Source: an uncultured Desulfobacteraceae bacterium
GTDB taxonomy: Bacteria; Desulfobacterota; Desulfobacteria; Desulfobacterales; BuS5
Direction of reading: 5' to 3'
Length of the DNA: 60,458 nt
Assembly: GCA_964482535.1 (NCBI GenBank)
Contig: CAYZXU010000002.1
Coordinates: 1 to 60,458 of the forward strand
Below are positions 1,841 through 54,028 of this stretch, piece by piece. The position numbers were made by a program, and so were the translations under genes. Within the stretch, counting starts at the first letter, position 1. Each line of letters begins with the position of its first letter. The notes beneath the pieces were generated by a model. That model saw nothing but the letters and a program-made list of their open reading frames with translations, had not been told where the DNA came from and searched no databases.

Positions 1841-1850
1841 TTTCATACTC

Positions 1851-3839
1851 CTATTCAGATCTACCGGAAAAAGACAGCATGTCACCGATTCTCTCCACCT
1901 GCTTAAATAAATGCTTTCTTATTTTTCCATGTTGTTTTTCAACCTTTTTTTGAGCATATATAATCGCAAATTTCCCGGCAAGTGTCCAGGCCGGAATCCT
2001 GAAACGCATCATTATAAGGGTGATAAAACTAAAAACCGAAAATTCCCTTTGAACCAGGTGATCCTCCATTGAGAGAAAAGGCTCAAAACTTCCGGGATCT
2101 CCCTGACGGGCGCAACGACCTTGAAGCTGCCTGTCAATACGGGCAGCATCATGTTTTTCTGTTAAAATTACGTGAAGACCCTTATTTTTTGCAACGCTTT
2201 TCTTTAGGATAATATCAGTTCCCCGGCCAGCCATGTTTGTGGCAATGGTAATACACCCGGGCTGCCCTGCTTCAGCAATAATATTTGCCTCTTCTTTATC
2301 CTGCCTTGCATTTAATACACGGTGTTTGATTCCTTCCCGGGCAAGAAGAAAACTGACACGCTCGGAAGCTGCAACGGAACGTGTTCCTGTTAGAACAGGT
2401 CTTCCATCGTTTTGCATTTGTTTAAGACGTTTTACTACAGCCTGCCACTTTAATTCTTCTGTTGGAAAAATTTTGTCACGATAACTGTCCCTGATCACAG
2501 GGCGGTTTGTGGGGATGCTGATAACCGGCAATTCATATACATGCCACAGCTCATTTTTAACCTCCATGGCTGTTCCAGTCATTCCAGACAGATTCAGATA
2601 CCGCCTGAAAAAACTCTGATAACTTATTTTGGATAGAGACTCCCGCTGTTTTGTCACTTCGCACCCTTCTTTTAATTCAATAAGCTGGTGCAGACCTTTT
2701 TCCCATGAACGGTCGGGCATTAATCTTCCTGTAAATTCATCAATAATATGAATTTTATTGTCCTGGATCAGGTAATGTTCATCCCTGTGGAAGAAATGCA
2801 AGGCTGTCAGGGCTTTTTGAATGATATCTTCTCTTCTTATGGTTCCGGTCCATAAATGCCCCAGGGCTTCGGTCTTTTCAATAATTAGAAGTTTTCCTTT
2901 TTTTGTAAGCTTAATCAGTTGCTGGGAACGATCAATGATATAGTCGGTTCCTTCAAGGATCTCACCGGCAATTGAAATAGCCTGTTCCATAAAAAGCTGC
3001 TCATCTTTTCCCCCTGATGTTCCTGAAATAATTAAAGGCGTTCTTGCTTCATCAATAAGAATACTGTCTGCCTCATCAACAATTGCAAAACAAAGACCTC
3101 TTTGAAGAAGACGACGGGATTTTGAGTTATTGCTGCAGATATTTTCAGCCTGCAAGTAAAGATGATGCCCTCTGTTTTCTAATGTTATCCTGTCCCTCAG
3201 ATAATCAAATACAACATCTTTATTGGTACAATAAGTAACATCACACTGATAAGCCTCTCTGCGTGCATCGGGCTCAAGTTCATGGGTAATGCAGCCGACT
3301 GTAAGGCCGAGAGCCCTGTAGACAGGCCCCATTGATTCGGCATCCCTTGCAGTAAGGTAATCGTTTATGCTGATAACATGAACAGGTATTCCGGCAAGTG
3401 CAGCGGTGCCTGCTGCAAGAGTTGCGGTAAGCGTTTTTCCTTCGCCGGTTGCCATTTCAGCTACCATTCCGTTCAAGAGAACCCATCCTCCAATAATCTG
3501 AACATTATAATGTTTCATATTGATTGTTCTGCCTGCGATTTCCCGGATTAAGGAAAAAGATTGTGCTGACAAATCTTCTTCAAATCCTTTTTTATGGAGT
3601 TCTAAACGCAGATCAGCAATCATGGTTTTCAACTGTTTGTCGGATTTTTTCATTAAACCGGATGAATATGCTTCCACAAGAGAAACAAAACGTTTGCGGT
3701 TTATGCCTCCGGAAGAAGAATAAACATAAAGTCCTTTTATTATTCCTGCAACCACATCAAAAGGACCTGATCGTTTACTTTTTTTTTCAGGACGAAAATT
3801 AACAGTGGCCGGAGGATATGAAGAGACAATGGTTTTCAT
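1851..3839 (-). CDS. SecA-family motor ATPase, C-terminally truncated paralogue (662 aa)
   Basis: Near-canonical SecA motor motifs are present: MATGEGKTL (GEGKT = 3432..3446), AIVDEADSILIDEARTPLIISG, HIIDEFTGRLMPDRSWEKGLHQLIELKEG, SYQSFFRRYLNLSGMTGTA, IPTNRP, ATNMAGRGTDI, RIDRQLQGRCARQGDPG and LSMEDHL. The protein ends 17 residues after AQKKVEKQHGKIRKHLF, which corresponds to the start of the SecA helical scaffold. The wing domain, two-helix finger and Zn-binding tail are therefore absent. Confidence 0.85.
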   Translation of the reverse strand: MKTIVSSYPPATVNFRPEKKSKRSGPFDVVAGIIKGLYVYSSSGGINRKRFVSLVEAYSSGLMKKSDKQLKTMIADLRLELHKKGFEEDLSAQSFSLIREIAGRTINMKHYNVQIIGGWVLLNGMVAEMATGEGKTLTATLAAGTAALAGIPVHVISINDYLTARDAESMGPVYRALGLTVGCITHELEPDARREAYQCDVTYCTNKDVVFDYLRDRITLENRGHHLYLQAENICSNNSKSRRLLQRGLCFAIVDEADSILIDEARTPLIISGTSGGKDEQLFMEQAISIAGEILEGTDYIIDRSQQLIKLTKKGKLLIIEKTEALGHLWTGTIRREDIIQKALTALHFFHRDEHYLIQDNKIHIIDEFTGRLMPDRSWEKGLHQLIELKEGCEVTKQRESLSKISYQSFFRRYLNLSGMTGTAMEVKNELWHVYELPVISIPTNRPVIRDSYRDKIFPTEELKWQAVVKRLKQMQNDGRPVLTGTRSVAASERVSFLLAREGIKHRVLNARQDKEEANIIAEAGQPGCITIATNMAGRGTDIILKKSVAKNKGLHVILTEKHDAARIDRQLQGRCARQGDPGSFEPFLSMEDHLVQREFSVFSFITLIMMRFRIPAWTLAGKFAIIYAQKKVEKQHGKIRKHLFKQVERIGDMLSFSGRSE

Positions 3840-3844
3840 AATAA

Positions 3845-5998
3845 TTAAATATTGAATTTATTAAGAAGCAGACGACGGAAATCCCGATACCACCGAAAAA
3901 CAAGGGGTTCCGGTTCGTGTTCAAAACGCACATACACCCTTTCGCCGACTCTGTTAACGAAAACACCTTCCAATTCTATTTCTATTTGAAATAATCTTTC
4001 AAATGCCTTTGGTTTATTATTTTGTCTTGGATCGAGAACAATATCGCCTCCGCCTTCTGAACTGAACGCCATGCTTGGCAGATCTTCAGAAGCTGCGGGC
4101 ACCACTCTTTTTATTGTTGATGGAATAATTTTTTTCATATTACCGGCGAGTCTTGATTCTACTTTTATAGAACTTTGAAACACCCTGTCCGCTTTGGTCT
4201 GGGATATGATAACAAGTGCGGTAGCATCATCCGAATCATTTATAACAAACCCTAATTGTTCGCCTCTTTGAATAAAACGTCCTGGGAGATCCTGAGAAGA
4301 CATGGGCAATAAAAATATTCCGTCTTTAGGACTGTAAATCGTCAATTCCCCGCTTCGTTCCATTGCCCTTTTTAATTCCGCATTTACCCTTTTTATTTCA
4401 TCATTTAAAATGTCCGCCTCAGTTCTGTTTTCTATCATGCTTTTCATATGCATCAACTTCAATTCTAAAAGTTTGGCCTTTAATTTTTTGACCCGGACAA
4501 CAAGTTCAAGATTTTCACAGATGATAAGGGGAGCGCCTGCTTTGACTTTTTCACCGGAAACGGCAGCAACCTCTTTAATAAACCCACTGGTTTTTATGTG
4601 GATTCTGGATTGTTCAGGCGGCCATAATACTCCCTGGGCATCAGTAATATAGCTCATGGGAACAATAATGAACAGGGGAGGAATCAAAAGACAAACAGTA
4701 AACAGGATTATTTTTAAAATGCGTTTTTGTTTTTTTTTAAAGCTGTAATTCATAATAAGATATTTGACACCCCTGAATGCCGGCATGACCAGCATGGTGA
4801 ATCCGCACCATAACGCAAGCAGGATCCCGATTAAAAAAAATTTGCCGGCAACCATTATGATGATTCTTATGGAGATAAAGATTCTGTATATGAATGCCGC
4901 AACACCGTATATCCCCATTAATAATGCTTCGCCTTTTGCGGTTGCCGGAGATTGAGCAGCTTTATCTTCAAGTAGATAGCGGCGTAAAAGATAACCGATA
5001 TACTGATTGCTGCGGGTTCCCATATTGGGGATTTCCAGATAATCCGAAAGAACATAATATGCATCAAACCGAAGAAGAGGATTCCCATTGAACAGCAGGG
5101 TGGAAATACTTGCTACAAGAATAATGTTATAAGTAATTGCGCGAATATTTCCAGGCTCAATATTTACCCATATTATTAAAGCAAGGGCTGCAATAAAAAG
5201 TTCGCATAAAATACCTGCTGCACCTACCAGCATGCGTTTTTTTTTGTCGGAAAATGCAATGGAAGCTGATGCATCCATATAGGGTATAGGCATAAAAACA
5301 AGCAGCATAATACCCATAACATGAACTTCACCACCCCATTTTTTTACGGCATAGGCATGGGCAAATTCATGAAAAAGTTTTAAAACAGGGTATACAAACC
5401 AGAGCAGCATTAAATTTTGTGCGCTTAAAGCCCTGTCAATGATATTCAAAGTAAGATCATTCCAGTGTACCATTAGAATTGATAGAGCATACAAAACAAT
5501 GGTCAACCAGATTATTGCCCCTGAAATACTGAAAACACTTTTCCCGATTAAGGCGGTTTTGTTTAAAAACCTGTCAGGATCAAAAATCGGCAACTGTATA
5601 CTTACCGGCGATTTCAGTATATTCATCATCCCTTTTCGTTTTTCCTGCTTAAAACGATAGTGAAGATTCGCAATATCGGAAGGCAGATCGGATTGTATGG
5701 CATCTACACTGTGAAGCTGGGAAAGCAGATTTATAACTTCGTCCTGGGTAGGCATATCGTCACCAAGATGTTCACATGCCTGTTCCCATATCCGGTTAAG
5801 AGTATTTTTGCCATCCATAAAACCGATGATATAATAGGCTTCCGGTGAAAAACGATGAAATTTTCCCGTGGAATTATCCTGAAGAATATACCAGTCTTCA
5901 TCGCGGTACGTGTGGCGATGAATTTTAACATGGCTGCGTAATATCGGTTTAATCGATTCAACACGGTACCATGACTGGCTGAAAAGCGTTTCGCTCAT
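3845..5998 (-). CDS. PqqD-like domain - M50/site-2-protease-like polytopic metalloprotease - HlyD fusion (717 aa)
   Basis: Residues ~15-100 show a PqqD/RRE-like pattern (KPILRSHVKIHRHTYRDEDWYILQDNSTGKFHRFSPEAYYIIGFMDGKNTLNRIWEQ...). Several hydrophobic TM segments follow. The HExxH motif is HEFAH at 5357..5371, within a hydrophobic stretch, and the second S2P motif is NGNPLLRFDAYY (aa 304-315). A last TM (ILFTVCLLIPPLFIIVPM) precedes a ~250-aa MFP-type region (VSGEKVKAGAPLIICENLEL ... KLKAKLLELKLMHMKS ... ELTIYSPKDGIFLLP). Confidence 0.8.
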   Translation of the reverse strand: MSETLFSQSWYRVESIKPILRSHVKIHRHTYRDEDWYILQDNSTGKFHRFSPEAYYIIGFMDGKNTLNRIWEQACEHLGDDMPTQDEVINLLSQLHSVDAIQSDLPSDIANLHYRFKQEKRKGMMNILKSPVSIQLPIFDPDRFLNKTALIGKSVFSISGAIIWLTIVLYALSILMVHWNDLTLNIIDRALSAQNLMLLWFVYPVLKLFHEFAHAYAVKKWGGEVHVMGIMLLVFMPIPYMDASASIAFSDKKKRMLVGAAGILCELFIAALALIIWVNIEPGNIRAITYNIILVASISTLLFNGNPLLRFDAYYVLSDYLEIPNMGTRSNQYIGYLLRRYLLEDKAAQSPATAKGEALLMGIYGVAAFIYRIFISIRIIIMVAGKFFLIGILLALWCGFTMLVMPAFRGVKYLIMNYSFKKKQKRILKIILFTVCLLIPPLFIIVPMSYITDAQGVLWPPEQSRIHIKTSGFIKEVAAVSGEKVKAGAPLIICENLELVVRVKKLKAKLLELKLMHMKSMIENRTEADILNDEIKRVNAELKRAMERSGELTIYSPKDGIFLLPMSSQDLPGRFIQRGEQLGFVINDSDDATALVIISQTKADRVFQSSIKVESRLAGNMKKIIPSTIKRVVPAASEDLPSMAFSSEGGGDIVLDPRQNNKPKAFERLFQIEIELEGVFVNRVGERVYVRFEHEPEPLVFRWYRDFRRLLLNKFNI

Positions 5999-6028
5999 TA
6001 TATTATTTTTTCCCCTTTGAGCGAGCCC

Positions 6029-7885
6029 TTATGGAAGCCATGACCATGTCCAAAGGATAAACCATTCTCTAAGATCTTTTGTCCAGATACCTATTAGTTT
6101 TCGCCTGTCCACATATATCTTGCCGACACCTTCCATGCCCGGTCTGAGCGGGGTGGAATCGGATTCGATTCGTGCCTCAACCCGGAAACTGTTTTGCCCT
6201 TCTTCTGCTATTGTTATGGGGGTAATTTTACTGACTTTAAAATTAAAATGTTTTTCAGGAAAAGAAAAAAGGAGAAGAGTTCCGGACTGGTTTTCCTTAA
6301 TATCGGAAATGCGTTTTTCATCAATTTTTAAAATAATTCTGTATGAATCAAGTGGCGCGATTTCAAAAAGCATCTCCCCTTGCTGCACAGGTCCGCCAAA
6401 CTTCTGGGAAAGATCTCCAGAAACAAGTATTCCCTTAAAAGGCGCTTTTATTAAAGTTCGTGCAAGCTGATTTTCGACAAGTTCAAGTTCTGCATCTGTC
6501 TGCTTAATACGAGCATTGATAATATTAACTTCAGCCCGATTATGATCGGCAAGAGCTTCCTGGTGTTTACTTTTTAATTGTGATTTTTCACTTAACAGGC
6601 TTATGCGTTCTAATCTCAGGTCCCTGTCATCAAGGACGCACAGCACTGTGTTTTTGTTTACAATATCCCCTGCGCGAAAGCTGGATTCTTCCACAAAACC
6701 GTTAAAGGGAGCAGCAACAATACGACGAATTTCTCCTTCAAGGACAGCATCGGCTGAAATTCTGTAATCTCCGTTTTTATAACCAAAAAAAACAATTAAA
6801 CATATAAGCATGGTAACAAAAATTTTTCTCCCGGGATATCCTGTCCCTGTCAAGCGGATGATCTGATTTTTTAATGATTCTTTTATTTTTAAAAAAAGGT
6901 GACGATCATTTTTTCGTTTATCTTCAAGGGCCGGACCTGCAAGAGAAATAACGCCGGTGCAAAATTCCAGATCAACTTCGGTAAATGGAAATTCATGAGG
7001 ACGTTCAAGTGTTAATGCTCCAAAATAGCAATCGTTTCCGAACAGGGGAATAGTTAAAATTGATCCTGAACCATGCCCTTTGGAAAGCAGGTCATGGTCA
7101 CGTATTATTATGGCGCTTTTCTCGTCCTGATAGTCGGGAAAAATAATTTCCCGGCGTTGAACAACAGCTTCATCCATTGCTTTTTCAATATCACGAATAA
7201 GATTCATTCGCTCGCCGAATTTGGAACTGTGGGACAGCGCCTGAATCCGCATTCTGTTTTTTTTTACAAACCCGATGCTTACCCTGTCACATTTCAGTTG
7301 CGTAGCAAGTTTTGTAACAAAAGCCATTGCAGATCCTTCAAACCTGTCTTCCGCAAAAGCTTCCGCAAGAAGTGTAACAGCAGATGTTAATCGACCAAGA
7401 GCCGCTTCTTCTTCCCTGGAACGTTCCCTGCGAAATAAAAGCTCCAGCCAGGAAATACCCCATTGAAGCTGTTCCATTGCATATTTTAATTCTTCTTCCG
7501 TTCTGGCGGATATTTCAACAGCCACAGAGCCGAAAAGTTCCAGGTCAACCAATACAGGATATCCAAGACCAAAATTAGAAGAGGAATCATTATCCAGCTC
7601 AATCAAAAGGCCGCAACGTTTTTCAAGCACTCTTTCCAATAAATCGGCAAGCTGTTTGGGATCACCTCCCTTTTCAGGCCATTTTGATACTGGTTCATAG
7701 GATTTTTTTGATTCCGGACTCCCAATAACCAGTACGCTGGAAACAATATTCGGGATCAGAAGAGACTGAAGAGCTAACCAGTTATGAAAATATTCATCCC
7801 TGTTTTGGGTTTTAGAAAATCTGCTCCATATTTCTGAAAAACCATCTTTCTTATTTTCTACACTGATTGCTGATTTTTGATCCAT
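6029..7885 (-). CDS. tandem GAF-like sensor - TM - HlyD/MFP fusion (619 aa)
   Basis: ATG 7885 has GGGG (7894-7897) 8 nt upstream; the ORF-track start at 7951 adds 22 weakly supported codons. The cytoplasmic half has two GAF-like halves; the second one (MAFVTKLATQLKCDRVSIGFVKK ... GSILTIPLFGNDCYFGALTLERPHEFPFTEVDLEF) is clear. One TM (IFVTMLICLIVFFGY) follows, then HlyD-type lipoyl, coiled-coil and barrel regions (APFNGFVEESSFRAGDIVNKNTVLCVLDD ... LIKAPFKGILVSGD). Confidence 0.75.
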   Translation of the reverse strand: MDQKSAISVENKKDGFSEIWSRFSKTQNRDEYFHNWLALQSLLIPNIVSSVLVIGSPESKKSYEPVSKWPEKGGDPKQLADLLERVLEKRCGLLIELDNDSSSNFGLGYPVLVDLELFGSVAVEISARTEEELKYAMEQLQWGISWLELLFRRERSREEEAALGRLTSAVTLLAEAFAEDRFEGSAMAFVTKLATQLKCDRVSIGFVKKNRMRIQALSHSSKFGERMNLIRDIEKAMDEAVVQRREIIFPDYQDEKSAIIIRDHDLLSKGHGSGSILTIPLFGNDCYFGALTLERPHEFPFTEVDLEFCTGVISLAGPALEDKRKNDRHLFLKIKESLKNQIIRLTGTGYPGRKIFVTMLICLIVFFGYKNGDYRISADAVLEGEIRRIVAAPFNGFVEESSFRAGDIVNKNTVLCVLDDRDLRLERISLLSEKSQLKSKHQEALADHNRAEVNIINARIKQTDAELELVENQLARTLIKAPFKGILVSGDLSQKFGGPVQQGEMLFEIAPLDSYRIILKIDEKRISDIKENQSGTLLLFSFPEKHFNFKVSKITPITIAEEGQNSFRVEARIESDSTPLRPGMEGVGKIYVDRRKLIGIWTKDLREWFILWTWSWLP

Positions 7886-8140
7886 AAAATATTCCCCAAA
7901 AAGTAATTTATACCTTTCCCTGCTAAGCCAGAAAAAAAACTTATCACACACGCTATGGGAATGTAAACCATATCGTTTGCTATGTAAATCAGCTATTTTG
8001 GAAAGCTATTGACACTTAGTTATTAAACGGTTTATTATATAAAGGTTATTTTTTTTCTGTCTTTCACTTCTTTTTTTTTATGATAAATTCAAAATTTTAA
8101 TAGATAATAATATATTTAGCAAAAAAGGAATTATTGCCTG
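7886..8140. promoter_or_regulatory. divergent control region between the GAF-HlyD operon and tolC/giant gene
   Basis: This is a 255-bp AT-rich non-coding gap between divergent starts at 7885 (-) and 8141 (+). GCTAT occurs four times (7952, 7979, 7992, 8005), the last three at 13-bp spacing. ATGTAAA occurs twice, 21 bp apart (7961, 7982). A TATAAA -10-like hexamer on the minus strand lies at 7907-7912. T8 and T9 tracts lie at 8049-8056 and 8071-8079. Confidence 0.5.
8009..8038 (+). promoter_or_regulatory. candidate sigma70-type promoter for tolC and the giant gene
   Basis: TTGACA (8009-8014), an 18-nt spacer, then TATTAT (8033-8038), about 100 nt upstream of ATG 8141. This is a pattern match only. 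Confidence 0.35.
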
Positions 8141-9526
8141 ATGAAGTCAAAAATTAAGCTTTTGCCATATGGAATGGTCTGGTTGACTAAACTATTATCA
8201 AGTAAAATATTTTTGTCTACTTTCGTTGTTTTAATTTTATTTTCAAGCCGGAGTTTATATGCAGAAGATTTAATGTTTTTTTATAATAGCGCCAGGGAAT
8301 TTGATGCTCAATTTTCAAAGGCAAAGTATGATAAGGCTGCCTCCCGTGAAATTATAAAACAGGCATATTCAAGACTTTTTCCCACATTAACCCTTAATGC
8401 CGAACATACTAATACAAAAGATGATATAAAAAGCAGTGACAATACTGTTTATGGTTCAGGGGTTGCCCATTATCCTTCCGACAGTTATACGCTTGCCCTT
8501 GTTCAGCCGATTTTCAATTTTTCATACATAATGGGTGTAATAAAAGCAAAGGAAGAAATCCGGCGTTCCGATGTTGAATATGTTAATGCCCGGCAGGAGA
8601 TAATCATCCGGGTTGCGGAAAATTATTTTAATACTTTGTCTGCAAAAGATAATTATGAATTTTATAAATCAGAACTTGCAGCAGTTGAACAGCATTATAA
8701 TCTTGCTAAGGTTCAACTGGATAATGGTCAGATACCTGTAACGGATATGCTGGATGCCAGGGCAAGATCGGCGACTGTTTTTGCAGATATGATAAAATCG
8801 GAAAATGAACTGGATGATGCCCGTGAGGCGCTTTATGTTGTAAGCGGGCAAAAGGATATTAAACTATCCGGCATACAAACCAATGCATCACTGGCTGCTC
8901 TTGAGCCGGCAGATTATGATTCATGGATGCAAATCGCTCTTGAAAAAAATCTGGAAATTATAATAGAAAAACATGAAGTTGAAATTGCAAAGCGCGAAAT
9001 TAAACGCTTAAAGGCAGATCATTTTCCGGTTTTAAATTTAGAGCTCAGGGATGAATGGAGCGATGTGGACGGTTCCCTTTTTGGCGGTGGCAGTGAAGTT
9101 GAAACACAAGAGATTGCTTTTCAATTGAGCTTTCCTATTTTTAAGGGCGGTTTTGTAAGTTCCCAGGTTCGGGAAGCATTACAACTGCATAAGGCTGCAA
9201 AAGAGGAACTGCGAAATAAAACACTGCTGGTTAAGAGAAAAACCCGCTCAACATATCTTGGTGTAAAAAGTGCGATTATCAGAGCAAATGCATATGAAAA
9301 ATCCGTTGAAGCACAGAAACTGACCCTTGAAGCAAAACAGCAAGGTTTTAAATCCGGTCTGTTTACCAGCCTTGATGTGCTGGACGCGGAAAGAGATCTA
9401 TATGAGGCGAAACGGGATTATACCAAGGCAAGGTATGATTATATTACCAATATCTTAAATCTTAAATTCAGTGTCGGTACATTGACGGAAGAAGATATTG
9501 CCAAGGTAAATACATGGCTGGATTAA
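8141..9526 (+). CDS. TolC-family outer-membrane channel protein
   Basis: 461 aa. A signal-peptide-like N-terminus ends ...SRSLYA/EDL. The protein has a two-fold internal repeat of long helical segments typical of the TolC/OEP family (ASREIIKQAYSRLFPTLTLNAEHT; RQEIIIRVAENYFNTLSAKDNYEF; ALEKNLEIIIEKHEVEIAKREIKRLKADHFPVLNLEL; LDVLDAERDLYEAKRDYTKARYDYITNILNLKFSVGTL). Confidence 0.85.
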   Translation: MKSKIKLLPYGMVWLTKLLSSKIFLSTFVVLILFSSRSLYAEDLMFFYNSAREFDAQFSKAKYDKAASREIIKQAYSRLFPTLTLNAEHTNTKDDIKSSDNTVYGSGVAHYPSDSYTLALVQPIFNFSYIMGVIKAKEEIRRSDVEYVNARQEIIIRVAENYFNTLSAKDNYEFYKSELAAVEQHYNLAKVQLDNGQIPVTDMLDARARSATVFADMIKSENELDDAREALYVVSGQKDIKLSGIQTNASLAALEPADYDSWMQIALEKNLEIIIEKHEVEIAKREIKRLKADHFPVLNLELRDEWSDVDGSLFGGGSEVETQEIAFQLSFPIFKGGFVSSQVREALQLHKAAKEELRNKTLLVKRKTRSTYLGVKSAIIRANAYEKSVEAQKLTLEAKQQGFKSGLFTSLDVLDAERDLYEAKRDYTKARYDYITNILNLKFSVGTLTEEDIAKVNTWLD

Positions 9527-9546: not shown

Positions 9547-12500
9547 ATGTTTCTCAGGGGGAAACTTGTGTTTTACAAATTAAAAAAAATTGCGAAAAAA
9601 AGAAAAGAGAGCCGCAGGAACAAGCCCAGGGATTTTCAAACAAAAAGGCGCAGGATAAGATTTGAAGCCTTGGAAGACAGAATTCTTCTGTCGGCAGATA
9701 TTCCTATTATAGCCTATGACCTTGCATCTGATACAGCCTTGCCTGCTTTTGCAGAACAGGAACAATTGTTTCATGAAGAAACTCCTGCCCCGCAAATTCA
9801 ATTTGAACCTGAATCCATGGCAGATCAGATTGAAAACATTGGTAAAGAAGAGAATGTTCAACCGGATTATCAGGATAATATTAATGAAGATTATCTTGAG
9901 GATCAGTTTCAAATATCATCAGCCACCCAGGCAACTGTTAATTTTTATCCGGAAAACCCGGAAGAACAGGTTGAAAAAATCAATGAAGTTGAGAATGCCG
10001 AACCCCTGAAGGCAGATCTGCAGTTCGTTGATAATATCTATCCGAAGTACACAGAGGAAGGAATACTTGCATCTGAAATCATAGCCCGCCATCAAGTTCG
10101 TGAGATAATAATTGTTGATTCATCCGTTCCTGATTACCATGGCCTGGTTAAAGAGATAACTGCCGTTGACAGCGAAAGCGACCATACAGATGCAGGTAAT
10201 GATAACACATCCCCCGACATTTTTTCTTCTATCACGTCTTCTATTCAGGAGCATGAAACATTACAAACCGGAGAACCTATCCACAGCAGTTCGGAAAAAA
10301 CAGAGATAAGCCCTGAACGCGGCATATTTGTTCTTGATTCCGGACGTGATGGATTTGAGCAGATAACTGAAATATTAAAAAAATATAAAGACGTTGGCGC
10401 TGTTCATATAATATCCCATGGATCAGCAGGATTAATACGTCTTGGCTCAGGTAAGATTGATAAAGAAGATCTGGAACAAAACAGAGCCATAATTAAAGAC
10501 TGGGGCAAGGCTTTGACCCCTGACGGAGATATCCTTGTTTATGGATGCAGCGTGGCTCAGGGGAAAACCGGTATCGAATTTGTTGAAAGCCTGGGCAATT
10601 TAACAGGCGCTGATGTCGCTGCATCTGATGATGCTACGGGAAGTTCTGACCGTGAGGGCGACTGGATGCTGGAGTACAGCACCGGTATTATTGAAAGTAA
10701 GCCTCTTTTTGGGAGTACACCGGACTATAGCTATTTGCTGGAAGATATTATTGGAACGGATGATAACGATACTTTATCTGGCAATAGTGAACAGGATGAT
10801 ACGCTGACCGGCGGCGCCGGGGATGACACCTACGTATTTCAGGACAATTGGGGAGACGATACTGTTGTTGAGAATATTGATGAGGGAGTGGACATTCTTG
10901 ATTTTTCTAATATAATAACGGATCTCACCTTCACCCTGCATGACGATGGAACCGTTTCTGTAACAGACGGCACCAATATTATCAACAACGCTGCCGGTAT
11001 AGAAAAATTGGTTGGCGGCAGCGGCCATGACACCCTCGTGGGTCCTGATGGGGGAGCTATCTGGAATCTGACAGGGGACAACACGGGAATTGTCAATGGT
11101 TTCATATTCAGCGGCATTGAGGACTTGAAGGGTTCTGCCACCGGACAGGACACTTTTATAGTCGAAAATAAGGCCAAATGGTTAGGGATTATCGACGGCG
11201 GTGGTGGAACGGATATACTCGATTTAACACCTGTTGCCGATAATTTGATTTTTACGATTCAAGACAGTGGAATCGTTTCTGTCAACACTGCCCCGGATAC
11301 CTGGTCTTCTCTCGGCATTATCCCTGAAGATGTTCTTTCACTCCTGAGTGACGGTCTGGAAATAGATAGTGTCAAGAATGTCGCCAAACTGGTCGGAGGA
11401 AGCGCAGACAATACTTTTGCCTTCGAGGACAATGCCTCCTTCGCGGGAACCGTCGACGGTAGTACGGGTATTACAAACACTCTGGACTACTCGGCTTTTA
11501 CCGATGATGTCAATGTGAATTTTGCAAACAGTACTGCCACGGCAACACTCGGGATCAATAATATGAACCGGGTCGTGGGTGAAAAAGACAAGCTGACTGT
11601 CACCTGCACCGATGCAGGAGAAGAGACCATATCTTTTTCTAACGACAAAGGTGTGATAGCGAGTGCTTTAAGCTGGGTCGGGCTGGATAATATCGAAGGT
11701 ACGCCCGGCAACGATGTGCTTACAGGTAATGACGGTTTCAACATTATTGTCGGAAAGTCAGGAGATGATCTCCTGATGGGCGAAGGCGGCCCTGACACGT
11801 ATAAGTTCGCTGATGGCTGGGGTGCCGATACTATCATGGATAGCGGTGGAATTGATATTCTGGATTTCACCATGTGTACGGCGGATCTAACGTTTACCAT
11901 ACACAATGACGGCACGGTCAGCGTAACTGACGGCACCAATAAAGTATTTGCCACTGATGACATTGAAGTGTTTATCGACGGTCTGGGCAACGACAAATTC
12001 GTTTTTGAAGACGGCGCGACCTTTGACGGAATAATCGGAAAACCCAACTGGCTGCAGAAGCTGCTTGGTACCAGTTTGATAGATTATGGATCCAATACTA
12101 TGGATCTGTCTGCATACACAACACCGGTTTACGTAGATCTGGGCATGAAAATTCCATATCTGGAACAGATCCTCTTTCAGCATGCATGGCAAACCGATGC
12201 CGGTGATCCAATAGTTAATACTTTTCATAACATATCCAATGTCATAGGCGGTTCTGCGGGCGATTTTATCTGGGGCAGTTCTGAAGCCAATATTTTAAAG
12301 GGAGGCGCCGGTGATGATGTGATTTTCGGCCGGGGCGGCGCTGATACGTTTTATGGCGGTACAGGTAACGATACCTTGTATGGCGGAATGGGCATGGATG
12401 ACCTGATGACTGTTATCGGTCTGCTTAAAGACCCTGCTGCCATAGCGGATCAATTCCTTGCTTCAGCCCCGGAACTTTTAATGTACATTGCTGACGGGGG

Positions 12501-15500
12501 CACAATCCAGAGTTACATCATGAACCTCATTGCCGGTGATGAGAATGTTGTATCTTACGCTGATGCAACATCTGCCGTAACCGTAGACCTGGGTCTGACT
12601 CTGGATCCGGATGACCTGGCAGGCTTTTTGCCTTATAGTACCGGTGGTGCAGGTAATGATACAATTATTGATATCCACAACGTTACAGGATCCCAATATG
12701 ATGATATCCTGAAGGGTAATTTGTTTGATAATACCATTAAGGGCGGCGTGGGTGACGATGAAATTTACGGCGGCCTGGGATCGGATACCATCATCGGCGG
12801 AAAGGGTGACGATACACTGGACGGCGGTGATTTGGGTGACGACATCAATCCGCTGGGCGACAGGGATATAGCTTCATACATTGACGCGGGAGCCGGAGTT
12901 ATGGTTGACCTGGGTATCAATGGGGTCCAGGACACCAGACGATGGGAGATCTTGCCCCACGTCAATGATGCGGTCGGCGGTCTGGTTGAGGGGCGGGATT
13001 ATGAAGTTGTATATGTAACAGATGACACGTTCAGTCTTAAGAGCCGGAGTGGTGGTGATATTGATATCACGCTCTCTCCACCAGGCGGTACCCATAGCTT
13101 TGATAAGGATGGAGTAATAAAATCCTTTACCCCTTCTGATGACCTGATGGACTATGATGGCAATATTTTTACCATCAACGGACATGGATTCAGTAACGGT
13201 GACATAGTTACATATGCTGCAGGCGGTGAAAAAATCTATACCAGCACAGGGATGGGTCACGACACCCTGATCAACATGGAGGGCGTCACCGGTTCCAATT
13301 ATGACGACGTCCTGATCGGTACTGATGGGTATAACATCATTAAAGGCGGCGCTGGAAATGACTTTCTGGTCAGTGGAAAAGGGTATGATATTGTTAGCGG
13401 TGGAGTGGGCATAGATACGATTTCCTATGAAGACGCTGATGCTATGGTATTTGTTAACCTTTGGGACCCACTACCGCAGATTACCGGGGGCTCGGATGTT
13501 GATACCCTGAAAGATATCGAAAACGTCATCGGGTCGGATTATGACGATATCCTCATCGGCAGCTTCGGGAACAACCTTCTTGAGGGTGGATTCGGTGATG
13601 ACATACTGTCAGGAACTATGGGAGCAGATATTTACAAGTTCCGGGACGGCTGGGGAGACGATACGGTTATAGACGACATCGAGAGCTTGATAGACTATAT
13701 CGATGGAAACGTGGATGCCGCAGATTATATCCAGAACGGGCTTGCCATAGCCAGTGAATGGCTGTCCAATGCTGTAGACACTGTTGATGTCCTGGAAATC
13801 CTGAATGATGCCGAAGAAAAGTCAGCCGAACATATTCCCGACACCCTGGATTTCACACAAACAACCGCTGACCTTTCGGTCAATATCCGTGGTTTTGGCG
13901 ATGTGCATGTGGGATACGGCGCAAACCAGACAAATGATATTTCCGAGATGGAAGTGATTTTGACCGGCGGCGGCAGTGATACATTCATCTTTGGAGTTAA
14001 TCCTCTCACAGGCGATCCGGAATCCTTTAACGGTAAAATCGATGGCGGAAGTGTGAATTACGCCAAATATCCGGATGCTCTTCCTGATGTGAACACTCTT
14101 GATTATTCAGCCAATGCCAAATCCGTTGTTGTGGATCTTGAAGCCCCGGAAGACGGATCACCGGGAGAAGCTCAGGGAACAAAAGGTGTTTATAACATAC
14201 ACAATGTTATCGGCGGTGACGGTGATGATACTTTGAAGGGATCTGCAGGAAATAATCTGCTGCTTGGCGGAAAAGGCAATGACCTGATCGAAGGCAGCGG
14301 CGGTGACGATGTCCTTGAAGGCGGTGCAGGAAACGACACTCTGATCGGTGGTGAAGGCTTCGATATGGTCTCCTATGTGACCTATGATAATAGCGTTGAT
14401 GACACGGGGATCTCCATTGATCTGGGCCTGGTAGACGGGGAGCAGGATACTGTTGGGGCTGGATTAGATATTTTAAAGAGTATCGAGGGTGCGGTCGGAT
14501 CGAAGCATGATGACACTCTCACTGGAGATGATCAGGACAATATGCTGATCGGCGGCAAGGGTGCTGATACCATTTACGGCATGGCCGGTAACGATTTGAT
14601 CTCCGGTGATGCGGACAACGATACCCTGTTCGGCGGTGCCGGTGACGATACCATCGAGGGCGGTGCCGGTGATGATTTCATGAACGCCGGTGCCGGTAAC
14701 GACACGGCATCCTACATTTATCCGGGAACGGCGGTGGATGTTGATCTGGCTATAACTGCCCTGCAGGATACCGGCGGCGCGGGAGAGGACACCCTTCGCA
14801 GCTTTGAGAATCTTATCGGTTCCAAAGGTGACGATACGCTCCGGGGCAATGATGAGGATAATGTTCTGACCGGCGGCGCCGGCGGCGACACCATTTACGG
14901 CAGGGACGGTAACGATCTTATCGTCGGTGAAGCGGGCGATGACATTCTCTACGGTGGTCTTGGGGATGATATCCTCAGCGGCGGCCAGGGGGATGATATT
15001 ATCGACGGGTATATCCAGGGCGGGGATCCGGCCGACGACCATGACATTGATACCGTTTCCTATGCGGAAGCGGCAAGCGGTGTGGTCATCAACCTGAACA
15101 TATCGGGACAAGCCCAGGACACCGAGGCTCTGGGCATAGACACCCTGCAGAATGTGGAAGGGGTCATGGGGTCCGATTATGATGATATCCTCACCGGCAA
15201 TGCCAGGGACAATATTCTTCTGGGACAGTCAGGTGATGATATTATCGAGGGTGGCCAGGGTGATGATATTATGTTCGGAGGCGAAGGTTTTGATTTTGTT
15301 TCCTATTCACTGTCCGACACGCCCGTATTTGTTGACCTGAGCATTACCTGGGAGCAGGAAACAGGAGACTCCACCGGCTGGGATGAGATTGCCGGCATCG
15401 AAGGTCTTATCGGATCGGACTATAATGATGTACTGACCGGCAATGAAGAGAAAAATGTCCTCATGGGAGGGCTGGGCGAAGACGAACTGGACGGCGGTGC

Positions 15501-18500
15501 GGGTGCGGACACGGCCTCTTACGAGAATGCCCTTGCACAGGTGACCGCAGATTTGAGTGGGTTGACGGCAAACACCGGTGAAGCCTGGGGCGATATTTTC
15601 TTTGGCATCGAAAACCTTATCGGCTCGAATTTCGACGATATACTCATTGGGGACTCGAAAGACAATATTATATCTGGCGGCATTGGGGCGGATATCCTGA
15701 TGGGCGGCGCCGGTGTGGATATTCTCAGGGGTGAGGAAGGCGACGATGCCCTCTACGGCGAGGACGGAGACGACATCCTCGTGGGCGGAGCAGGAGCGGA
15801 CAGTTATGACGGCGGCGGCGGTGATAATACCGCCTCCTACAGGAACGCGGCGGATGACAATGTGGGTGAAGACACCACCGGCATTACCGTGGATATGAAC
15901 AACTACAACCTGAACACCGGTGAAGCCTTTGGCGACACATTTGCCAATATCCAAAATATCGAAGGTTCCGGCGGAGACGACATCCTCATTGCAGATAATA
16001 CAGGTGTCAAACTCTTCGGTCTCGCAGGAGACGATAAACTCACCGGCGGGACGGGCAATGACGAACTTACCGGGGGTACAGGGGACGATACCCTTCAGGG
16101 GGGCGTCGGCGATGACTTGCTTCAGGGCGGAGACGGGGCGGATGCGCTGTTTGGATACATGCAGGATGGAAATGTTGACGATGATACCGGCACGGATACC
16201 GCCACCTACGCAGGCGCGGGATCCGGCGTAACCGTTGATTTGAGTAAGAAGACCGGTTCGGATGATGTTGCCGAAGGGGACACGCTGGAAGGGATAGAGA
16301 ACCTTATCGGTTCAGATTATGACGATGAACTGACCGGTGACGATAAAGACAACCGGCTCCAAGGCGGTATCGGAAACGATATCCTGACAGGCAAAGAGGG
16401 CGATGATATCCTGGATGGCGGCGACGGCGGCGATTTTGCCTCATTCGCGAACTCGTTGCGGGGTGTGACCATAGACCTTGCGCTCACGACCCCTCAGGCC
16501 AATGGTGAAGAGGGAAGCGATACTCTCATTAGTATAGAGAACCTTGTGGGTTCCACACGCAATGACACTCTTATTGGAAACGATAATGACAATATTCTTG
16601 TAGGCGGTGAGGGTGAAGATACACTAAAAGGTCTTGCCGGTGATGATATCCTTTTGGGCGAAGAAGATTCTGATTATTTGGAGGGTGGTGAAGGTGATGA
16701 CATTCTGGACGGCGGGGACTGGGGTGACATCCTTATGGGAGGAGAAGGCATTGACACCGCAACCTATGCGGATGCCCAAAACGGTGTTACCGTAAACCTG
16801 CTTACCGGTATAGGCGGTGGGGACGAGGCCGATGGTGATACGCTTACGGGTATTGAAAACCTGGTCGGCTCTAAATTCGACGACACGCTCATCGGAGATA
16901 CGCTCGGCAATATCCTCAATGGCGGCTCAGGGGACGATACCATTGACGGTGGGGCAGGGGACGACTTCCTTGAAGGCGGTGAAGGGGATGACACCATCAC
17001 GGGCGGAGATCACGGCACAGAAGGCGATACTGTTTCTTACCAGGGCGATACGGCGGCGGTCAATGTGGAACTGGGCGGCGTCGCCCTTGATGGCTCCGGC
17101 GGTACAGATAGCCTGGAAGGTATTGAAAATATCTATGGTTCAGTCCACGATGATACCCTCGTAGGCGATGCGGACAACAATATTCTCTGGGGGAACGAAG
17201 GCTCCGACAATCTGGACGGCAGTGAAGGGGACGACGTACTGTATGGCGGATTCGGCGATGACACGCTGACCGGCGGAGAAGGCGGAGACACATTCATGTT
17301 TGAGGACAGTTGGGGCGTGGATACTGTGTCCGAAATTGATGACGCTTCAATAAATACCCTTGATTTTTCCCTTGCCATTGCTGACCTGACAGTAATCGTT
17401 CATGCGGATGGAACAGTATCAGCCTATGATAGTGTTAGCAAACTGGAAAATGTATCTCATATATCAAGAATAATCGGTGGACAGGGTAATGACCATTTCT
17501 TCATTGAGCAAAATTCAACCAACCTCCCGTTTCTCGATGGCGGCCCGGACGGGTCTGACACGTTGGATTACTCTGATTATACGACAGATCTGAATATTGA
17601 CCTTTTAAATATCAGCATCAATCCCACCGGAACATCCGGGGTCTTAAACATTGAGAATATTATCGGAGGATCAGGTGACGATACCCTGACAGCAGGCGAT
17701 AGCGATAGCATTCTCAATGGCGGCCTGGGAGATGATCATCTTATCGGAGGGGCAGGCAGCGACATGCTGCTCGGTGGTGAGGGCACGGATATCCTGGAAG
17801 GCGGAGCAGGTGATGACACCCTCGACGGCGGCAAAGAAGGCGACCAACTCTACGGGTATTTCAGTACTTCACTTCCCGGTGATGATACCGGATCGGATAC
17901 CGCCTCCTACTATACCTATCAGATGGACGAGGACTGGAATGGTCTTACGGTTGATCTCACAAATCCGGATGAGTCCACTAAAGATGCCCTGGGTGATACA
18001 TTCTCGGGCATAGAGAATATTACCGGATCAATGGGTGCGGATATCCTGGTTGGTAATGCCGAAACCAATATCCTTGCCGGAATGGACGGCAACGATACCC
18101 TCATCGGTATGGGCGGTGACGATGTGATGGATGGCGGCATCGGCTGGGATATGGTTTCCTATGAGGATTATGTTAATGCAACTGGTGGCGTCGATGTCGA
18201 TTTGAGACGTACCAATGGTTCTGATGCTGTTGTTACCGGAGCTTCCGGAATTATCAGCAGGGATTCACTTGTCAGTGTTGAAGATGTAACTGGTACCCAT
18301 TATGACGATATAATCACAGGTGATTTGTTTAGCAACATTCTCATGGGTGGTGACGGGAATGATATCATCAGGGGCATGAGCGGTAATGATACCATTTATG
18401 GCGGTGATGGCGATGATACGATCTATGGCGGCGAAGATTCCGACACCCTGATTGGCGGAGCAGGAGCCGATGATCTTTATGGATATATCGAAGGAGGTGA

Positions 18501-21500
18501 CTCTGCCGATGAAGTGGGTTTAGATACAGCCTCTTATGAAAATGCAGATGAAGGGGTCGTTGTCAGCCTGCAAACCGGAATGGGAACAGCCGGCGAGGCT
18601 GCCGGAGATGAATTGGTTGATATTGAAAACCTTACAGGATCAGCATTTGCTGACAACCTGACAGGTGATGCTGAAGATAATATACTCTTGGGCAATGAGG
18701 GGGATGATACACTGACCGGCGGTGACGGCTATGATACGGCCTCCTATATTACCAGTCCTGACGGAGTGAATGCGGAACTGGTTACCGGTGCTGCCGATGA
18801 CGGCTTTGGCTCAACTGACACCCTGAACGAGATCGAATATCTGCGCGGCTCTGATTATGATGATATACTTATTGGTGACAGTGGACACAATTATCTCAGG
18901 GGCGGATTTGGTGATGATATTCTCGACGGCGGCGCAGGTGACGATTTCATCGAAGGGGAATCAGGTGATGATACGCTTAAAGATATCAGTGGAGATGATA
19001 CCCTTGACGGAGGGTTCGGATCCGACACCGTTTCATATGAAGGAGCTACTTTCGATCTGAACGTTGACCTGACGATCCTGGAGGTTCAGAACACTCTTGG
19101 TGCTGGTGAAGACTTGCTTGAAAGTATAGAAAATCTCACTGGTGGTTTCGGTAACGATATGCTCATCGGCGACAGCGGTGACAATGTTCTCCGCGGAGGA
19201 GCCGGCATTGATACACTTATTGGCGGCCTGGGTGCAGACACATTGATCGGAGGCGCCGGCGCGGATTTAATATACGGACATTTTATCGACAACACGGACA
19301 AGGCGGAAGACGTTGATATTGATATGGCATCATATATTGATTCTGCTGCGGTAACAGTAAATCTGACCACAGCCGTTCATACGGGTGGCCATGCTGAAGG
19401 TGATCAACTGCATGATATAGCTGGAATTACAGGTTCGGATTTCGATGATACTATAACCGGTGATGATAAAGACAATATTTTGAATGGCGCTGCCGGCAAT
19501 GACACCCTCATTGGCGCAGGTGGTGATGATATTCTCATTGGTGGAGCAGGGGCGGACAGTCTCACAGGCGGCGATGGTAGTGATACGGCATCCTACGAGG
19601 GCTCTGACTCAGCAGTAAATATTAACCTGGACACCGGTGTATACAGCGGTGGTCATGCAGATGGCGATTCCCTTATCGGCATTGAGAATATCACAGGTTC
19701 CGACTATGCCGATGCCCTGGTAGGTGATGTAGGGGATAATATCCTCATTGGCGGCAAGGGTGATGATATCTTTTCCTTTCTGGATGAATTCCACACAATT
19801 GACTCGAATTTGACTGTGGGTCAGGATGTTTATGATGGAGAAGAGGGAGAGGATACTTTTCCCGATTTCAAGTCACTTACAATTAATGATGTATTTCCTG
19901 GCGGCTTCACTTTAAGGGATGTGGACGGCATCACTATTACTGATGCTGAACACAGCATGAAAGCTGCCGGTGATATCATATTCACTTCGGCCACATCCAT
20001 TACTGTTGAAAATGATGTAAGGCTTGAGTCAACCGGAGGTGATGTCATACTAAGGGTGAACGCCTATGTTGCCCCGAATATTATTAACGATTTGCAGAAT
20101 TTTTATACAAGTAATGTGTCCGTGGCCGAAATTACCATCGGTAATAATGTCAGCTTGCTGGCCGGAGAGAATGTGTATATAGCAACTTCAGCTACTACTA
20201 CACGCTCTGTGGGGTATGAGTATTATCGAGTCGGTCTGGCCGAAGGGCTGGACGCAATGAATATCGCCAATATAACAGGTGAAATGACATTTACACCTGC
20301 AAAAACAGGCGAGGCACCGGTTGGAGGCGGTGAGCCGCCGGTCACTACTCATGCCAAAATCGTCTGGCATTCAACTGATGAAGATTTTGGGGCTGCCGGC
20401 TTTGAAACAGGCCAGACCATCATAGTAGATGGTTCCAAACTGAATAATAATCTCTACAGAATTCAGGAGGTGGATGCAGATAATAATACCCTGGTTATTA
20501 CCTCTGTGGAGTCTCTTGCACCAGCCGGAAACCAGGACGAGAGAGCAGATGTCGGAACTGAACCCGTATATGGTAATGCGGAACTTCAGGAAGAGAAAAA
20601 TGCAGTCTATGTCACCATTCAGGAAGTTGAAACATCCCGTCTGAATAGAAATCCTGTAACCACTTTAAATAATTTTGGTGAAGAGGCAAGCCAGCTTGAA
20701 ACAAGCGGGGCAGCGCAGGCATTATTTGTTCCATTTGCCGCAGAAAAGATAACGTCATTATTATCACCAATGTTTAATACTGCTAAAGGCAGTATTATGA
20801 ATAAACCATCCGTCAAGCAGTTCTTGAAAAAATGGCCTGTGGCAAACCAGTTGAATCCTGCAGCGGCGCCTCCGGTACAAATTTTTGAATCAGATGCAAC
20901 TGCCAGGATCTCTATTGGTGATGTGGTGATCAATGCCGGCAGTGATGTGACCATCGAATCGAATGCCATATCGGAAAGTAAACTCACCACATCTCCCACG
21001 TTGTTCGGCATACCGGTTTCCTTCGGTGTGACGGTGGTCACGTCAGATGCAGAGGCCCTGGCAGATATTACGGGTACTGCGGTTATCACGGCAGGCGGCG
21101 ATTTTAAATTAACGGCCGATGTGTCAAACACACTGACCGAAAACCTGTCCATCACATCCAAAAAATTAATAACTCTCCCGCCCAAAAAAAAGCCGACGAC
21201 TACGTCCAATGCGAATGGCCAGCAGGGAAACAATAATCGTAGTTTGCTGGATAAGTTTAAACTCCAACTCGCTGTAGGTGTTGCGGCAGCATCTTCAAAT
21301 ACGAGCGCAACCGTGGGCGAGAATGTAACGATCACCGCAGCAAATGCAAATGTGACTGCGAATAACGATAATGATTTTGATTTGCGCGTGTCGGCCAATA
21401 CACCGGCGACGACCATGTCCAAGCCCGGCAAGCTCACAAGCGCAAAGAAAACACAGGACTTCCAGGTTTCGGCTGCGGCAAATGAGTCTATTAAGGTTAC

Positions 21501-54005: not shown

Positions 54006-54028
54006 ATTATAAAAGAAAGCAATCTTAA

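Follow-up and report, generated by a model that had tools for sequence, protein, structure and literature searches.

The 60,458-nt stretch of DNA analyzed here, taken from contig CAYZXU010000002.1 of an uncultured Desulfobacteraceae bacterium and called the window in the following, encodes a giant protein of 13,571 amino acids (aa) in the open reading frame (ORF) at 9547-50262 on the forward strand. Judging from sequence comparison, we consider it reasonably probable that the N-terminus of this protein is a dedicated cytoplasmic export leader, of neither the Sec nor the Tat type, and that it addresses the giant to a machine composed of an M50-HlyD protein with a recognition element (RRE) of the kind found in the biosynthesis of ribosomally synthesized and post-translationally modified peptides (RiPPs), a GAF-HlyD protein, a short HlyD protein, a SecA-like ATPase, the outer membrane channel TolC, and a DUF3467 protein. 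This reading draws on the membership of the N-terminus in the LEPR-XLL motif family, on the domain content of the neighboring genes, and on an association of leader and machine that is both statistical and syntenic.

The leader and its motif family

The translation of the giant ORF, read over positions 9547-10446, opens with MFLRGKLVFYKLKKIAKKRKESRRNKPRDFQTKRRRIRFEALEDRILLSADIPIIAY. Residues 1 to 38 hold 18 Lys or Arg and two Asp or Glu, and they are followed by FEALEDRILLSAD. Over the entire 13,571 aa, Lys and Arg amount to 5.1%, and no other 38-residue window of the protein is as rich in them as the first. AlphaFold2 (AF2) predicted a helix with modest confidence for residues 2 to 14, leaving the LEPR-XLL motif and the linker behind it disordered. 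No 19-residue window within the first 110 aa exceeds a mean Kyte-Doolittle hydropathy of 1.1, and the longest uncharged hydrophobic run there is IPIIAY; an h-region of the Sec or Tat type is therefore absent. In terms of a Sec signal peptide, the leader has an n-region but, with charges throughout FEALEDRILLSAD, no h-region, and no AxA-type site comes after it. The Tat pattern (S/T-R-R-x-F-L-K plus an uncharged h-region) is not found either: Arg-Arg pairs are present, but E, E, D/P, R, and D come after them.

With regard to the start codon, ATG 9547 has no evident Shine-Dalgarno (SD) sequence, whereas GTG 9568 is preceded by AGGGGG at 9556-9561 with a spacer of 6 nt. When 26 homologues were aligned with the giant, the N-termini of the nearest among them, P0121 (MSHLKKIAHRLK), P0124 (MSYLEKIAGKLK), and P0122 (MLPIKRITKGL), coincide with the GTG product (M)FYKLKKIAKK. 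Since the SD-like site and the homologue N-termini agree, we favor GTG 9568 as the likelier start. The protein would then comprise 13,564 aa, with 16 Lys or Arg in the 31 residues of its basic stretch and a net charge there of about +14; the leader is kept with either codon. Two further features of this short region were noted. A 7-bp hairpin at 9549-9565 (GTTTCTC AGG GGGAAAC), flagged by the terminator scan, overlaps the SD-like GGGGG and could modulate translation initiation, or could have arisen by chance. In addition, A8 (9582-9589) and A7 (9595-9601) runs lie within Lys codons of the leader, and slippage at these homopolymers during replication or transcription could switch the giant gene on and off.

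The curated NCBIfam model NF012209 ('LEPR-8K', LEPR-XLL domain), which has a cutoff of 17 bits, matches aa 38 to 55 of the giant with 27.4 bits (E = 1.7e-6) when translation is begun at the ATG and with 29.5 bits from the GTG. A related Pfam model, PF07595 (Planc_extracel, Planctomycete extracellular motif), aligns to aa 34 to 52 with 18.6 bits, under its gathering score of 25.5. The motif starts at residue 39 of 13,571 (32 from the GTG), that is, at the extreme N-terminus of a very long protein. When all six frames of the window were scanned with a purpose-built hidden Markov model (HMM) of the leader, the only hit at the N-terminus of an ORF was the leader of the giant.

How variable such leaders are was apparent from 120 homologues of giant residues 1 to 420, all of them proteins with a DUF4347 domain, 48 of which have a match to the motif somewhere in residues 1 to 200. 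For 40 of these the start is clear, and there the motif is 10 to 54 residues in (median, 24.5), the median net charge ahead of it is +6, and positions -5 to -3 are most often occupied by Arg. The shared layout is a Met, a basic stretch of 10 to 54 residues, and F-E-x-L-E-[P]-R-[IL]-L-L-S-A-D. The Pro position in these 40 aligned leaders is filled by P in 25, A in 6, R in 3, K in 2, and N in 2; LEDR, as in the window, recurs in P0145, P0154, L129, and L142. Asp for Pro is within the variation of the family, and by its sequence the window leader is an ordinary member, albeit the most basic one seen (net +16 from ATG 9547, against the median of +6). Of nine leaders adjoining modules or TolC genes elsewhere, eight also exceed the NF012209 cutoff. 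A second N-terminal variant was seen in L109, L115, L130, L136, L155, and L163, in which a basic stretch plus L-A-L-E-P-R-x-L/M-F-D-G-A precedes DUF4347. The one example tested barely passes NF012209 (17.3 bits), and none of them stands beside a module or TolC gene in our loci.

An earlier inspection of the same DNA, made without database searches (the sequence-only reading), had described much of this leader. Its count of 18 basic and two acidic residues in the first 38 was reproduced, and its statement that neither a canonical h-region nor a signal peptidase site follows agrees with the hydropathy maximum and the lack of an AxA-type site. It had regarded the start as ambiguous, with the better SD at GTG 9568, a preference now shared by the homologue N-termini. 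What it had called a LEPR-XLL variant with Asp replacing Pro, to be scored with the family HMM, scores significantly and is a true family member, and the Asp is found in other members.

Association of the leader with a SecA-like/M50 module

Secondary SecA_DEAD proteins associated with type 1-like proteins were described by Kamneva, Poudel & Ward (2015, PLoS One, PMC4452313), who named no substrate or signal and called their broader role 'completely unknown'. The window contains the same four proteins in the same order as their module (GAF-HlyD, Peptidase_M50-HlyD, SecA_DEAD, and HlyD/biotin-lipoyl), at 1097-7951 on the minus strand; OEP/TolC is sometimes nearby in the module as they describe it. 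Here the full gene set is present in a permuted form, with the module on the minus strand and TolC, the giant, and DUF3467 following on the plus strand (Table 1).

We approached the link between leader and machine from both sides. On the cargo side, a profile search with the N-terminus of the giant yielded 80 metagenomic DUF4347 loci, and the 66 with at least 1.5 kb of upstream sequence were counted. Directly upstream of 49 leader-bearing genes, a module was found in 22 cases, a TolC gene in 15, and neither in 12. The 17 genes without the canonical motif had no module upstream; a single one, which is probably a broken ORF, had a TolC gene, and 16 had neither. Module or TolC thus stood upstream of 37/49 genes with the leader versus 1/17 without the canonical motif (Fisher's exact p = 4.7e-7). 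Where no more than a few dozen residues separate the N-terminus from DUF4347, the gene was never beside a module or TolC. Among members of a single protein family, leader and secretion genes go together, the leaderless members serving as an internal control. Often the leader-bearing giant gene and the module are on one strand and practically touch, as in L097 and L152. The only HlyB-sized ABC (ATP-binding cassette) ATPase ORF among approximately 174 loci (L149, 3937-6000) lies near a leaderless DUF4347 gene, and the leaderless members of the family may use a classical type 1 system.

On the machine side, a profile search with the M50-HlyD protein, whose homologues number in the thousands, was used to collect 80 genome loci with 10-kb flanks. 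These span Desulfobacterota, Alpha-, Beta-, and Gammaproteobacteria, Omnitrophota, Nitrospira, Myxococcota, and others, and nearly all of them keep the order GAF-HlyD, M50-HlyD, SecA-like, short HlyD. A six-frame scan with the leader HMM placed a large leader-bearing ORF directly beside the module in 14/80 loci, in most of them directly downstream on the same strand. Two loci are divergent (L009 and L054), and in L009 TolC and the giant gene are arranged divergently from the module just as they are here. Several more loci (L023, L037, L069, and L080) contain giant ORFs that reach the end of the retrieved sequence before their N-termini; because the listing of neighboring ORFs was noisy in high-GC loci, it was used for clear cases only. 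The adjacent leader proteins of L029, L063, and L068 gave no DUF4347 hit, so the shared element is the leader, not the domain behind it. Not every cluster is complete: in the Thalassospira marina plasmid (L177) and in L104, L131, L134, L150, L001, and L069, the M50-HlyD gene stands directly before that of the short HlyD protein, with no SecA-like gene.

The same pairing is found in cultured bacteria. On a plasmid of Pontibrevibacter nitratireducens ALG8, a 31.8-kb gene named 'LEPR-XLL domain-containing protein' by PGAP is followed by DUF3467, GAF-HlyD, a PqqD-family protein, SecA-like, and HlyD genes; on one of Pseudosulfitobacter sp. DSM 107133, the order is LEPR-XLL protein (38.8 kb), GAF-HlyD, site-2 protease, SapC, SecA-like, and HlyD. 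The Thalassospira marina CSC3H3 plasmid mentioned above carries LEPR-XLL protein (12.1 kb), DUF3467, GAF-HlyD, M50-HlyD, HlyD, and TolC genes. Methylosinus sp. C49 has a 26.5-kb gene whose product starts ...RRAKIIFDTLEPRVLLNAD and carries the motif, ahead of DUF3467, the module, and TolC, and Mesorhizobium ciceri has a 31.5-kb gene ahead of DUF3467 and the module. The PGAP naming of LEPR-XLL giants beside the module is an independent annotation of the pairing. With leader gene and machine side by side on plasmids of the first three strains and of Methylosinus sp. C49, our hypothesis is open to experiment. PGAP and RefSeq call the SecA-like protein 'prepilin peptidase' or 'DEAD/DEAH box helicase' (L167, 23074-25098; L168, 22222-24138; L165, 22139-24124), names that are misleading since phmmer against the SecA-like protein of the window gives E = 1e-174 to 1e-185.

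Two accessory genes recur in these clusters. DUF3467, a protein of about 100 aa, usually lies between the giant gene and GAF-HlyD (many of L002-L069, L165, L166, L168, L176, and L177), and of 67 informative module loci, 18 have it as the gene immediately before GAF-HlyD. A SapC-family protein takes this upstream place in six of the 67 and was seen inside or beside the module in 15 loci altogether, where it replaces DUF3467, or sits between M50-HlyD and SecA-like, or precedes a TolC-giant pair (L167, 22260-23081; L032, L053, L059, L066, L072, L073, L089, L092, and others). We also considered DUF3467 as a SecB-like chaperone; hhalign against Escherichia coli SecB gave a probability of 0.45%, and the idea was dropped. 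A DUF3467 profile search of the sequences in the PDB returned no match.

Taken together, the 37/49 versus 1/17 split, the 14/80 module loci, and the plasmids of cultured bacteria lend strong comparative support to the proposal of the sequence-only reading, in which the leader would serve as an address tag for the divergently transcribed SecA-like/M50 genes.

Proposed export route and competing explanations

Where the leader would be read is suggested by the M50-HlyD protein. Its N-terminal ~110 residues are its most conserved part and, in 18 of 20 homologues, match the PqqD model PF05402 at E <= 0.1 (best, 2.3e-6); the domain of the window itself reaches 19.6 bits, short of the gathering score of 23.4. 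The name given to the homologues by PGAP is 'PqqD family peptide modification chaperone'. Farther along, the HExxH motif (HEFAH, aa 210-214) and the NPxxxxD motif (NGNPLLRFD, aa 304-312) show no variation among 25 homologues. Pfam PF02163 scores 21.8 bits on the window protein, falling short of its gathering score (27.2), and several homologues carry a precomputed PF02163 hit. The best relative in NCBIfam is NF041824, the daptide RRE-containing intramembrane metalloprotease, with 136.9 bits (E = 9e-40) over model positions 3 to 368 of 379; with an equivalog cutoff of 300, the M50-HlyD protein is a relative, not a member. YydH/LiaK are further relatives of the M50 part among the curated RiPP leader peptidases. 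The C-terminal third has the MacA/MexA/AcrA fold. An AF2 model of the whole protein is usable for the membrane and adaptor parts, and the PqqD-like domain shows a beta3-alpha3 topology in it, but with a pLDDT below 50, which is why Foldseek reported matches to adaptor proteins only.

PqqD-like domains bind leader peptides in RiPP pathways. For this reason, because no other part of the most constant component is as well conserved, and because some clusters have no SecA-like gene, we place recognition chiefly on the PqqD-like domain, which from sequence appears more likely to be the reader than SecA alone or SecA primarily. The sequence-only reading had assigned recognition to a SecA-type motor; the link to the operon has held up, the motor as sole or primary reader less so. 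As for this ATPase, it aligns to Bacillus subtilis SecA over residues 24 to 601 only, with intact Walker A and DEAD motifs, and is devoid of the wing domain, the two-helix finger, and the C-terminal tail. These are the parts by which SecA engages SecY.

From domain homology and gene neighborhood we infer leader binding, cleavage by the M50 protease, a direction of transport, and export itself, as follows. The cytoplasmic PqqD-like domain of M50-HlyD would bind the conserved motif, as RiPP recognition elements bind leader peptides, and the basic stretch would aid docking at the membrane, at the clamp of the SecA-like ATPase, or at both. The ATPase, having kept its preprotein-binding domain and lost its SecY-engaging parts, would feed the chain N-terminus first, possibly during translation; the cargo would be a nascent or unfolded giant RTX protein, and export while the 13,571-residue chain is being translated would be possible. 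The M50 metalloprotease would cut off the leader, as the peptidase domain does in PCAT-type exporters, and the three adaptor proteins plus TolC would take the chain through the periplasm and the outer membrane in one step. Once outside, the N-terminal RTX repeats would bind Ca2+ and so prevent back-sliding (a folding ratchet), as a mirror image of classical type 1 substrates. The distribution of these repeats fits an N-terminus-first emergence: 66 of 70 GGxGxD motifs lie within aa 1 to 3500 of the giant, and Pfam recognizes 31 HemolysinCabind stretches in aa 1 to 4600, followed by ~9,000 residues with no Pfam matches. In homologues, RTX repeats come directly after DUF4347.

Several observations weigh against such a route. 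All of the support consists of gene neighborhood and domain homology. No leader gene was found within 10 kb in 66/80 module loci, and 12/49 leader-bearing genes have no module or TolC directly upstream, so that the partners are often unlinked. In the TolC-giant subfamily closest to the window, only the window and L009 have the module nearby, and the other loci with 8 to 10 kb of upstream sequence have none. With the SecA-like gene absent from the T. marina cluster, L104, L131, L134, and L150, this protein cannot be a universal reader or motor. In the AF2 model, the RRE region stays below a pLDDT of 50, and its profile match to the sequence of a PqqD crystal structure is weak (E = 0.087). There is no evident way for an M50-type membrane domain to form a protein-conducting channel. 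Finally, a single RTX block sits ~250-400 aa from the C-terminus of the giant, as in classical type 1 substrates; the tail is rich in Lys and Glu.

This C-proximal block would be accommodated by a different scheme, in which the giant leaves C-terminus first through an unlinked ABC type 1 system, the leader and DUF4347 stay behind as an anchor or plug, and the GAF-HlyD/M50 module acts in the manner of LapD/LapG, with GAF sensing and a cut at the N-terminus releasing the adhesin. The module indeed combines a GAF sensor domain with a protease, the folded DUF4347 domain has a near-N-terminal position like that in LapA-type retention modules, and many loci that have no module still have TolC immediately ahead of the giant gene. 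We nevertheless judge this scheme unlikely. ABC-like ATPase ORFs were seen in only 5 of ~174 loci, none beside a leader-bearing gene; a SecA-family ATPase with a preprotein-binding domain and three adaptors would be superfluous for a release switch; and the RTX repeats are concentrated at the N-terminal end. Moreover, as neither the PqqD-like domain nor the leader has a signal peptide, the two should meet in the cytoplasm, not in the periplasm.

Alternatively, the module might export other cargo, either a small RiPP-like peptide or another protein, its nearness to giants reflecting a shared TolC or shared regulation and the LEPR-XLL leader having an unrelated role. The frequent abutment of leader-bearing giant genes and modules on one strand (L097 and L152), the recurrence of the pairing in at least five phyla and several permutations, and the fact that leaderless DUF4347 genes never stand beside the module make this improbable, and no conserved small precursor gene was noticed in the clusters, although no systematic search was made. 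In favor of the idea, the curated families nearest to the M50 part are RiPP leader peptidases (daptide and YydH/LiaK), and 66/80 module loci have no leader gene within 10 kb; in addition, M. extorquens expresses the GAF gene and hardly the rest (PMC4452313).

The leader is very improbable as an unusual Sec or Tat signal peptide that is read by a housekeeping translocon and sends the giant to the periplasm first and then to TolC: it has a basic n-region and, immediately ahead of the motif, Arg-Arg pairs that look loosely twin-arginine-like (RRRIRF here; RRRMLF and RRKMKF in homologues), but the hydropathy maximum of 1.1 over 19 residues leaves no hydrophobic core, E, E, R, and D interrupt the segment, no AxA-type site is present, the motif is conserved as a sequence and not as a physicochemical pattern, TolC-dependent systems draw their substrates from the cytoplasm or inner membrane, and a Ca2+-dependent repeat protein of 13,571 residues is an implausible Tat cargo.

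Returning to the leader as an address for the SecA-like/M50 machine, it is instructive to compare the proposed route with known export systems. Classical type 1 secretion (HlyB-HlyD-TolC; RTX adhesins such as LapA) shares with it TolC and membrane-fusion proteins, a Gly/Asp-rich RTX cargo nearly free of Cys (0.1%), and presumably a one-step passage. It differs in that no ABC transporter is encoded in the 60,458-nt window, where a SecA-family ATPase and an M50-type membrane protein are found instead, and in that the proposed signal is N-terminal and the RTX repeats lie at the N-terminal end. With PCATs and RiPP RRE systems, the likeness is a proposed N-terminal leader that is recognized by a domain on the same polypeptide as the exporter or protease and is cut off in the course of export. 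Unlike in PCATs and the daptide RRE-M50 protease, however, the cargo in the window is 13,571 aa long and not a peptide, there is no double-glycine site, and the protease is fused to a periplasmic adaptor domain.

The route may be a variant of TolC-dependent one-step secretion, deserving a type of its own if experiments confirm it. We suggest tentatively, with slightly more doubt than conviction, that LEPR-XLL leaders and the RRE-M50-HlyD/GAF-HlyD/HlyD/SecA-like/TolC machine (plus DUF3467 or SapC) are a secretion type for giants in their own right and not a flavor of type 1. Its marks would be an N-terminal signal, N-to-C and possibly cotranslational transport, a SecA-family motor in place of an ABC one, a RiPP-type reader, and clipping by an intramembrane metalloprotease.

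The closest published parallel is found in Chlorobium chlorochromatii, where the giants Cag_663 and Cag_665 have an N-terminal LEPRxLL, a TolC gene between them, and sapC beside them (bioRxiv 10.64898/2026.03.19.712371). The likeness to our loci thus extends to the TolC and sapC neighbors of giant LEPRxLL proteins, SapC being a recurrent companion of the module here. According to the same study, a horizontally acquired secA, Cag_1676, belongs to the same coexpression cluster as Cag_663/665. Its authors state that the giants 'lack known signals' and propose C-terminus-first export by SapC/TolC/HlyD, without invoking the SecA-like/M50 module. Our findings are of direct relevance to these giants, the 'symbiosis' proteins of Chlorochromatium consortia.

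Neither the motif family nor the module is new to the literature. The window shares with the LEPR-XLL family (NF012209) the motif, its site at the extreme N-terminus, and an extremely long host protein, and differs by Asp for Pro. The description of that family makes no link to the machine, and papers mentioning LEPR-XLL in the literature searched assign it no function. The module was cited by title in one other open paper and does not appear in the part of a 2021 Chem Rev review of tripartite systems that was available. What we add to its description is the PqqD-like domain, the DUF3467 or SapC accessories, and the LEPR-XLL giants as candidate cargo; neither the link between LEPR-XLL and the SecA/M50 system nor the PqqD-like reader or these accessories were found in the literature searched.

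How bacteria export proteins of 10,000 to 40,000 residues is an unsolved question. With a C-terminal type 1 signal, translation, which takes about a quarter of an hour, has to finish first, and the whole unfolded chain has to be held in the cytoplasm. An N-terminal leader, a SecA-like motor, and a TolC duct would, if true, remove this problem of holding the chain. Our reading proposes a cargo for a widespread module that was described in 2015 without one, and a function for a curated but unexplained N-terminal motif; if it is correct, the leader might also serve as a tag for the secretion of very large engineered proteins.

The giant protein and other features of the window

The features discussed above are collected in Table 1. 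The TolC and giant genes are presumably cotranscribed, given the short gap between them.

Table 1. Features of the secretion locus, with positions in the window
Feature	Position	Strand	Remarks
Short HlyD/RND-type periplasmic adaptor	1097..1885	-	Assigned by family searches
Truncated SecA-like ATPase	1851..3839	-	662 aa; NBD1, preprotein-crosslinking domain, NBD2, start of scaffold helix
M50-HlyD protein	3845..5998	-	717 aa; PqqD-like domain, M50/site-2-protease-like membrane domain, HlyD-type adaptor domain
PqqD-like (RRE-like) subdomain	5696..5950	-	aa 17-101 of M50-HlyD protein; proposed leader-binding site
GAF-HlyD	6029..7951	-	Cytoplasmic GAF domain joined to membrane-fusion (adaptor) domain
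Divergent intergenic region	7952..8140	.	Promoter-like sites on both strands (consensus matches only)
TolC-family outer membrane channel gene	8141..9526	+	Assigned by family searches; ends 20-41 nt 5′ of giant gene
Giant ORF	9547..50262	+	Leader, acidic linker, DUF4347, RTX-rich N-terminal quarter, long unassigned body, one C-proximal RTX block
GGGGG Shine-Dalgarno-like run	9557..9561	+	6 nt 5′ of GTG 9568; inside 7-bp hairpin 9549-9565
Basic n-region of leader	9568..9660	+	16 K/R and 2 D/E in 31 aa from GTG; ATG 9547 adds 7 residues, MFLRGKL
LEPR-XLL motif	9658..9711	+	NF012209 match, aa 38-55 = RFEALEDRILLSADIPII; core FEALEDRILLSAD at 9661-9699
Acidic low-complexity linker between leader and DUF4347	9712..10305	+	Length variable among homologues; disordered in AF2
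DUF4347	10306..10716	+	aa 254-390; H-G, Y-G-C, and ADVAAS motifs invariant; caspase/legumain-like fold
RTX-rich region	10744..20046	+	From aa 400 on
DUF3467 protein gene	50362..50700	+	Directly 3′ of giant gene

The giant as a whole is rich in Gly, Asp, and Ala and low in Cys, a composition typical of Ca2+-dependent secreted repeat proteins. Its gene contains no tandem DNA repeats at a score of >=200. Directly behind the leader and linker, the DUF4347 domain was modeled by AF2 with a pLDDT above 90; in the alignment, a hydrophobic strand lies before each of its invariant motifs. The model matches caspase-7, -3, and -1 and legumain at E ~1e-3, and its top structural match is the type VI secretion effector Tce1 in complex with Hcp3 (9qpe_G, E = 3e-4). 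DUF4347 may thus be a clan-CD-type, possibly self-processing, cysteine protease domain.

The remainder of the window was inspected as well, and an Rfam scan of it gave no hit. At one edge of the secretion locus, a Phd-family antitoxin ORF (284-598) overlaps a 104-aa ORF with no family hit (595-909), and an HTH antitoxin-like ORF (654-1058) lies on the opposite strand; together, 284-1058 look like a toxin-antitoxin pair. At the other, the DUF3467 gene and an unassigned 232-aa ORF are followed by a gene for a XerC/D-type tyrosine recombinase (51362-52273), which may mark the border of a mobile island that includes the secretion locus. Beyond it come a FabD-insert/nitronate-monooxygenase-like gene (52356-54005) and an ORF of more than 2,143 aa with a ketosynthase-like start that runs off the window; this region (52356-60457) is probably a polyketide or polyunsaturated fatty acid synthase cluster, unrelated to the leader.

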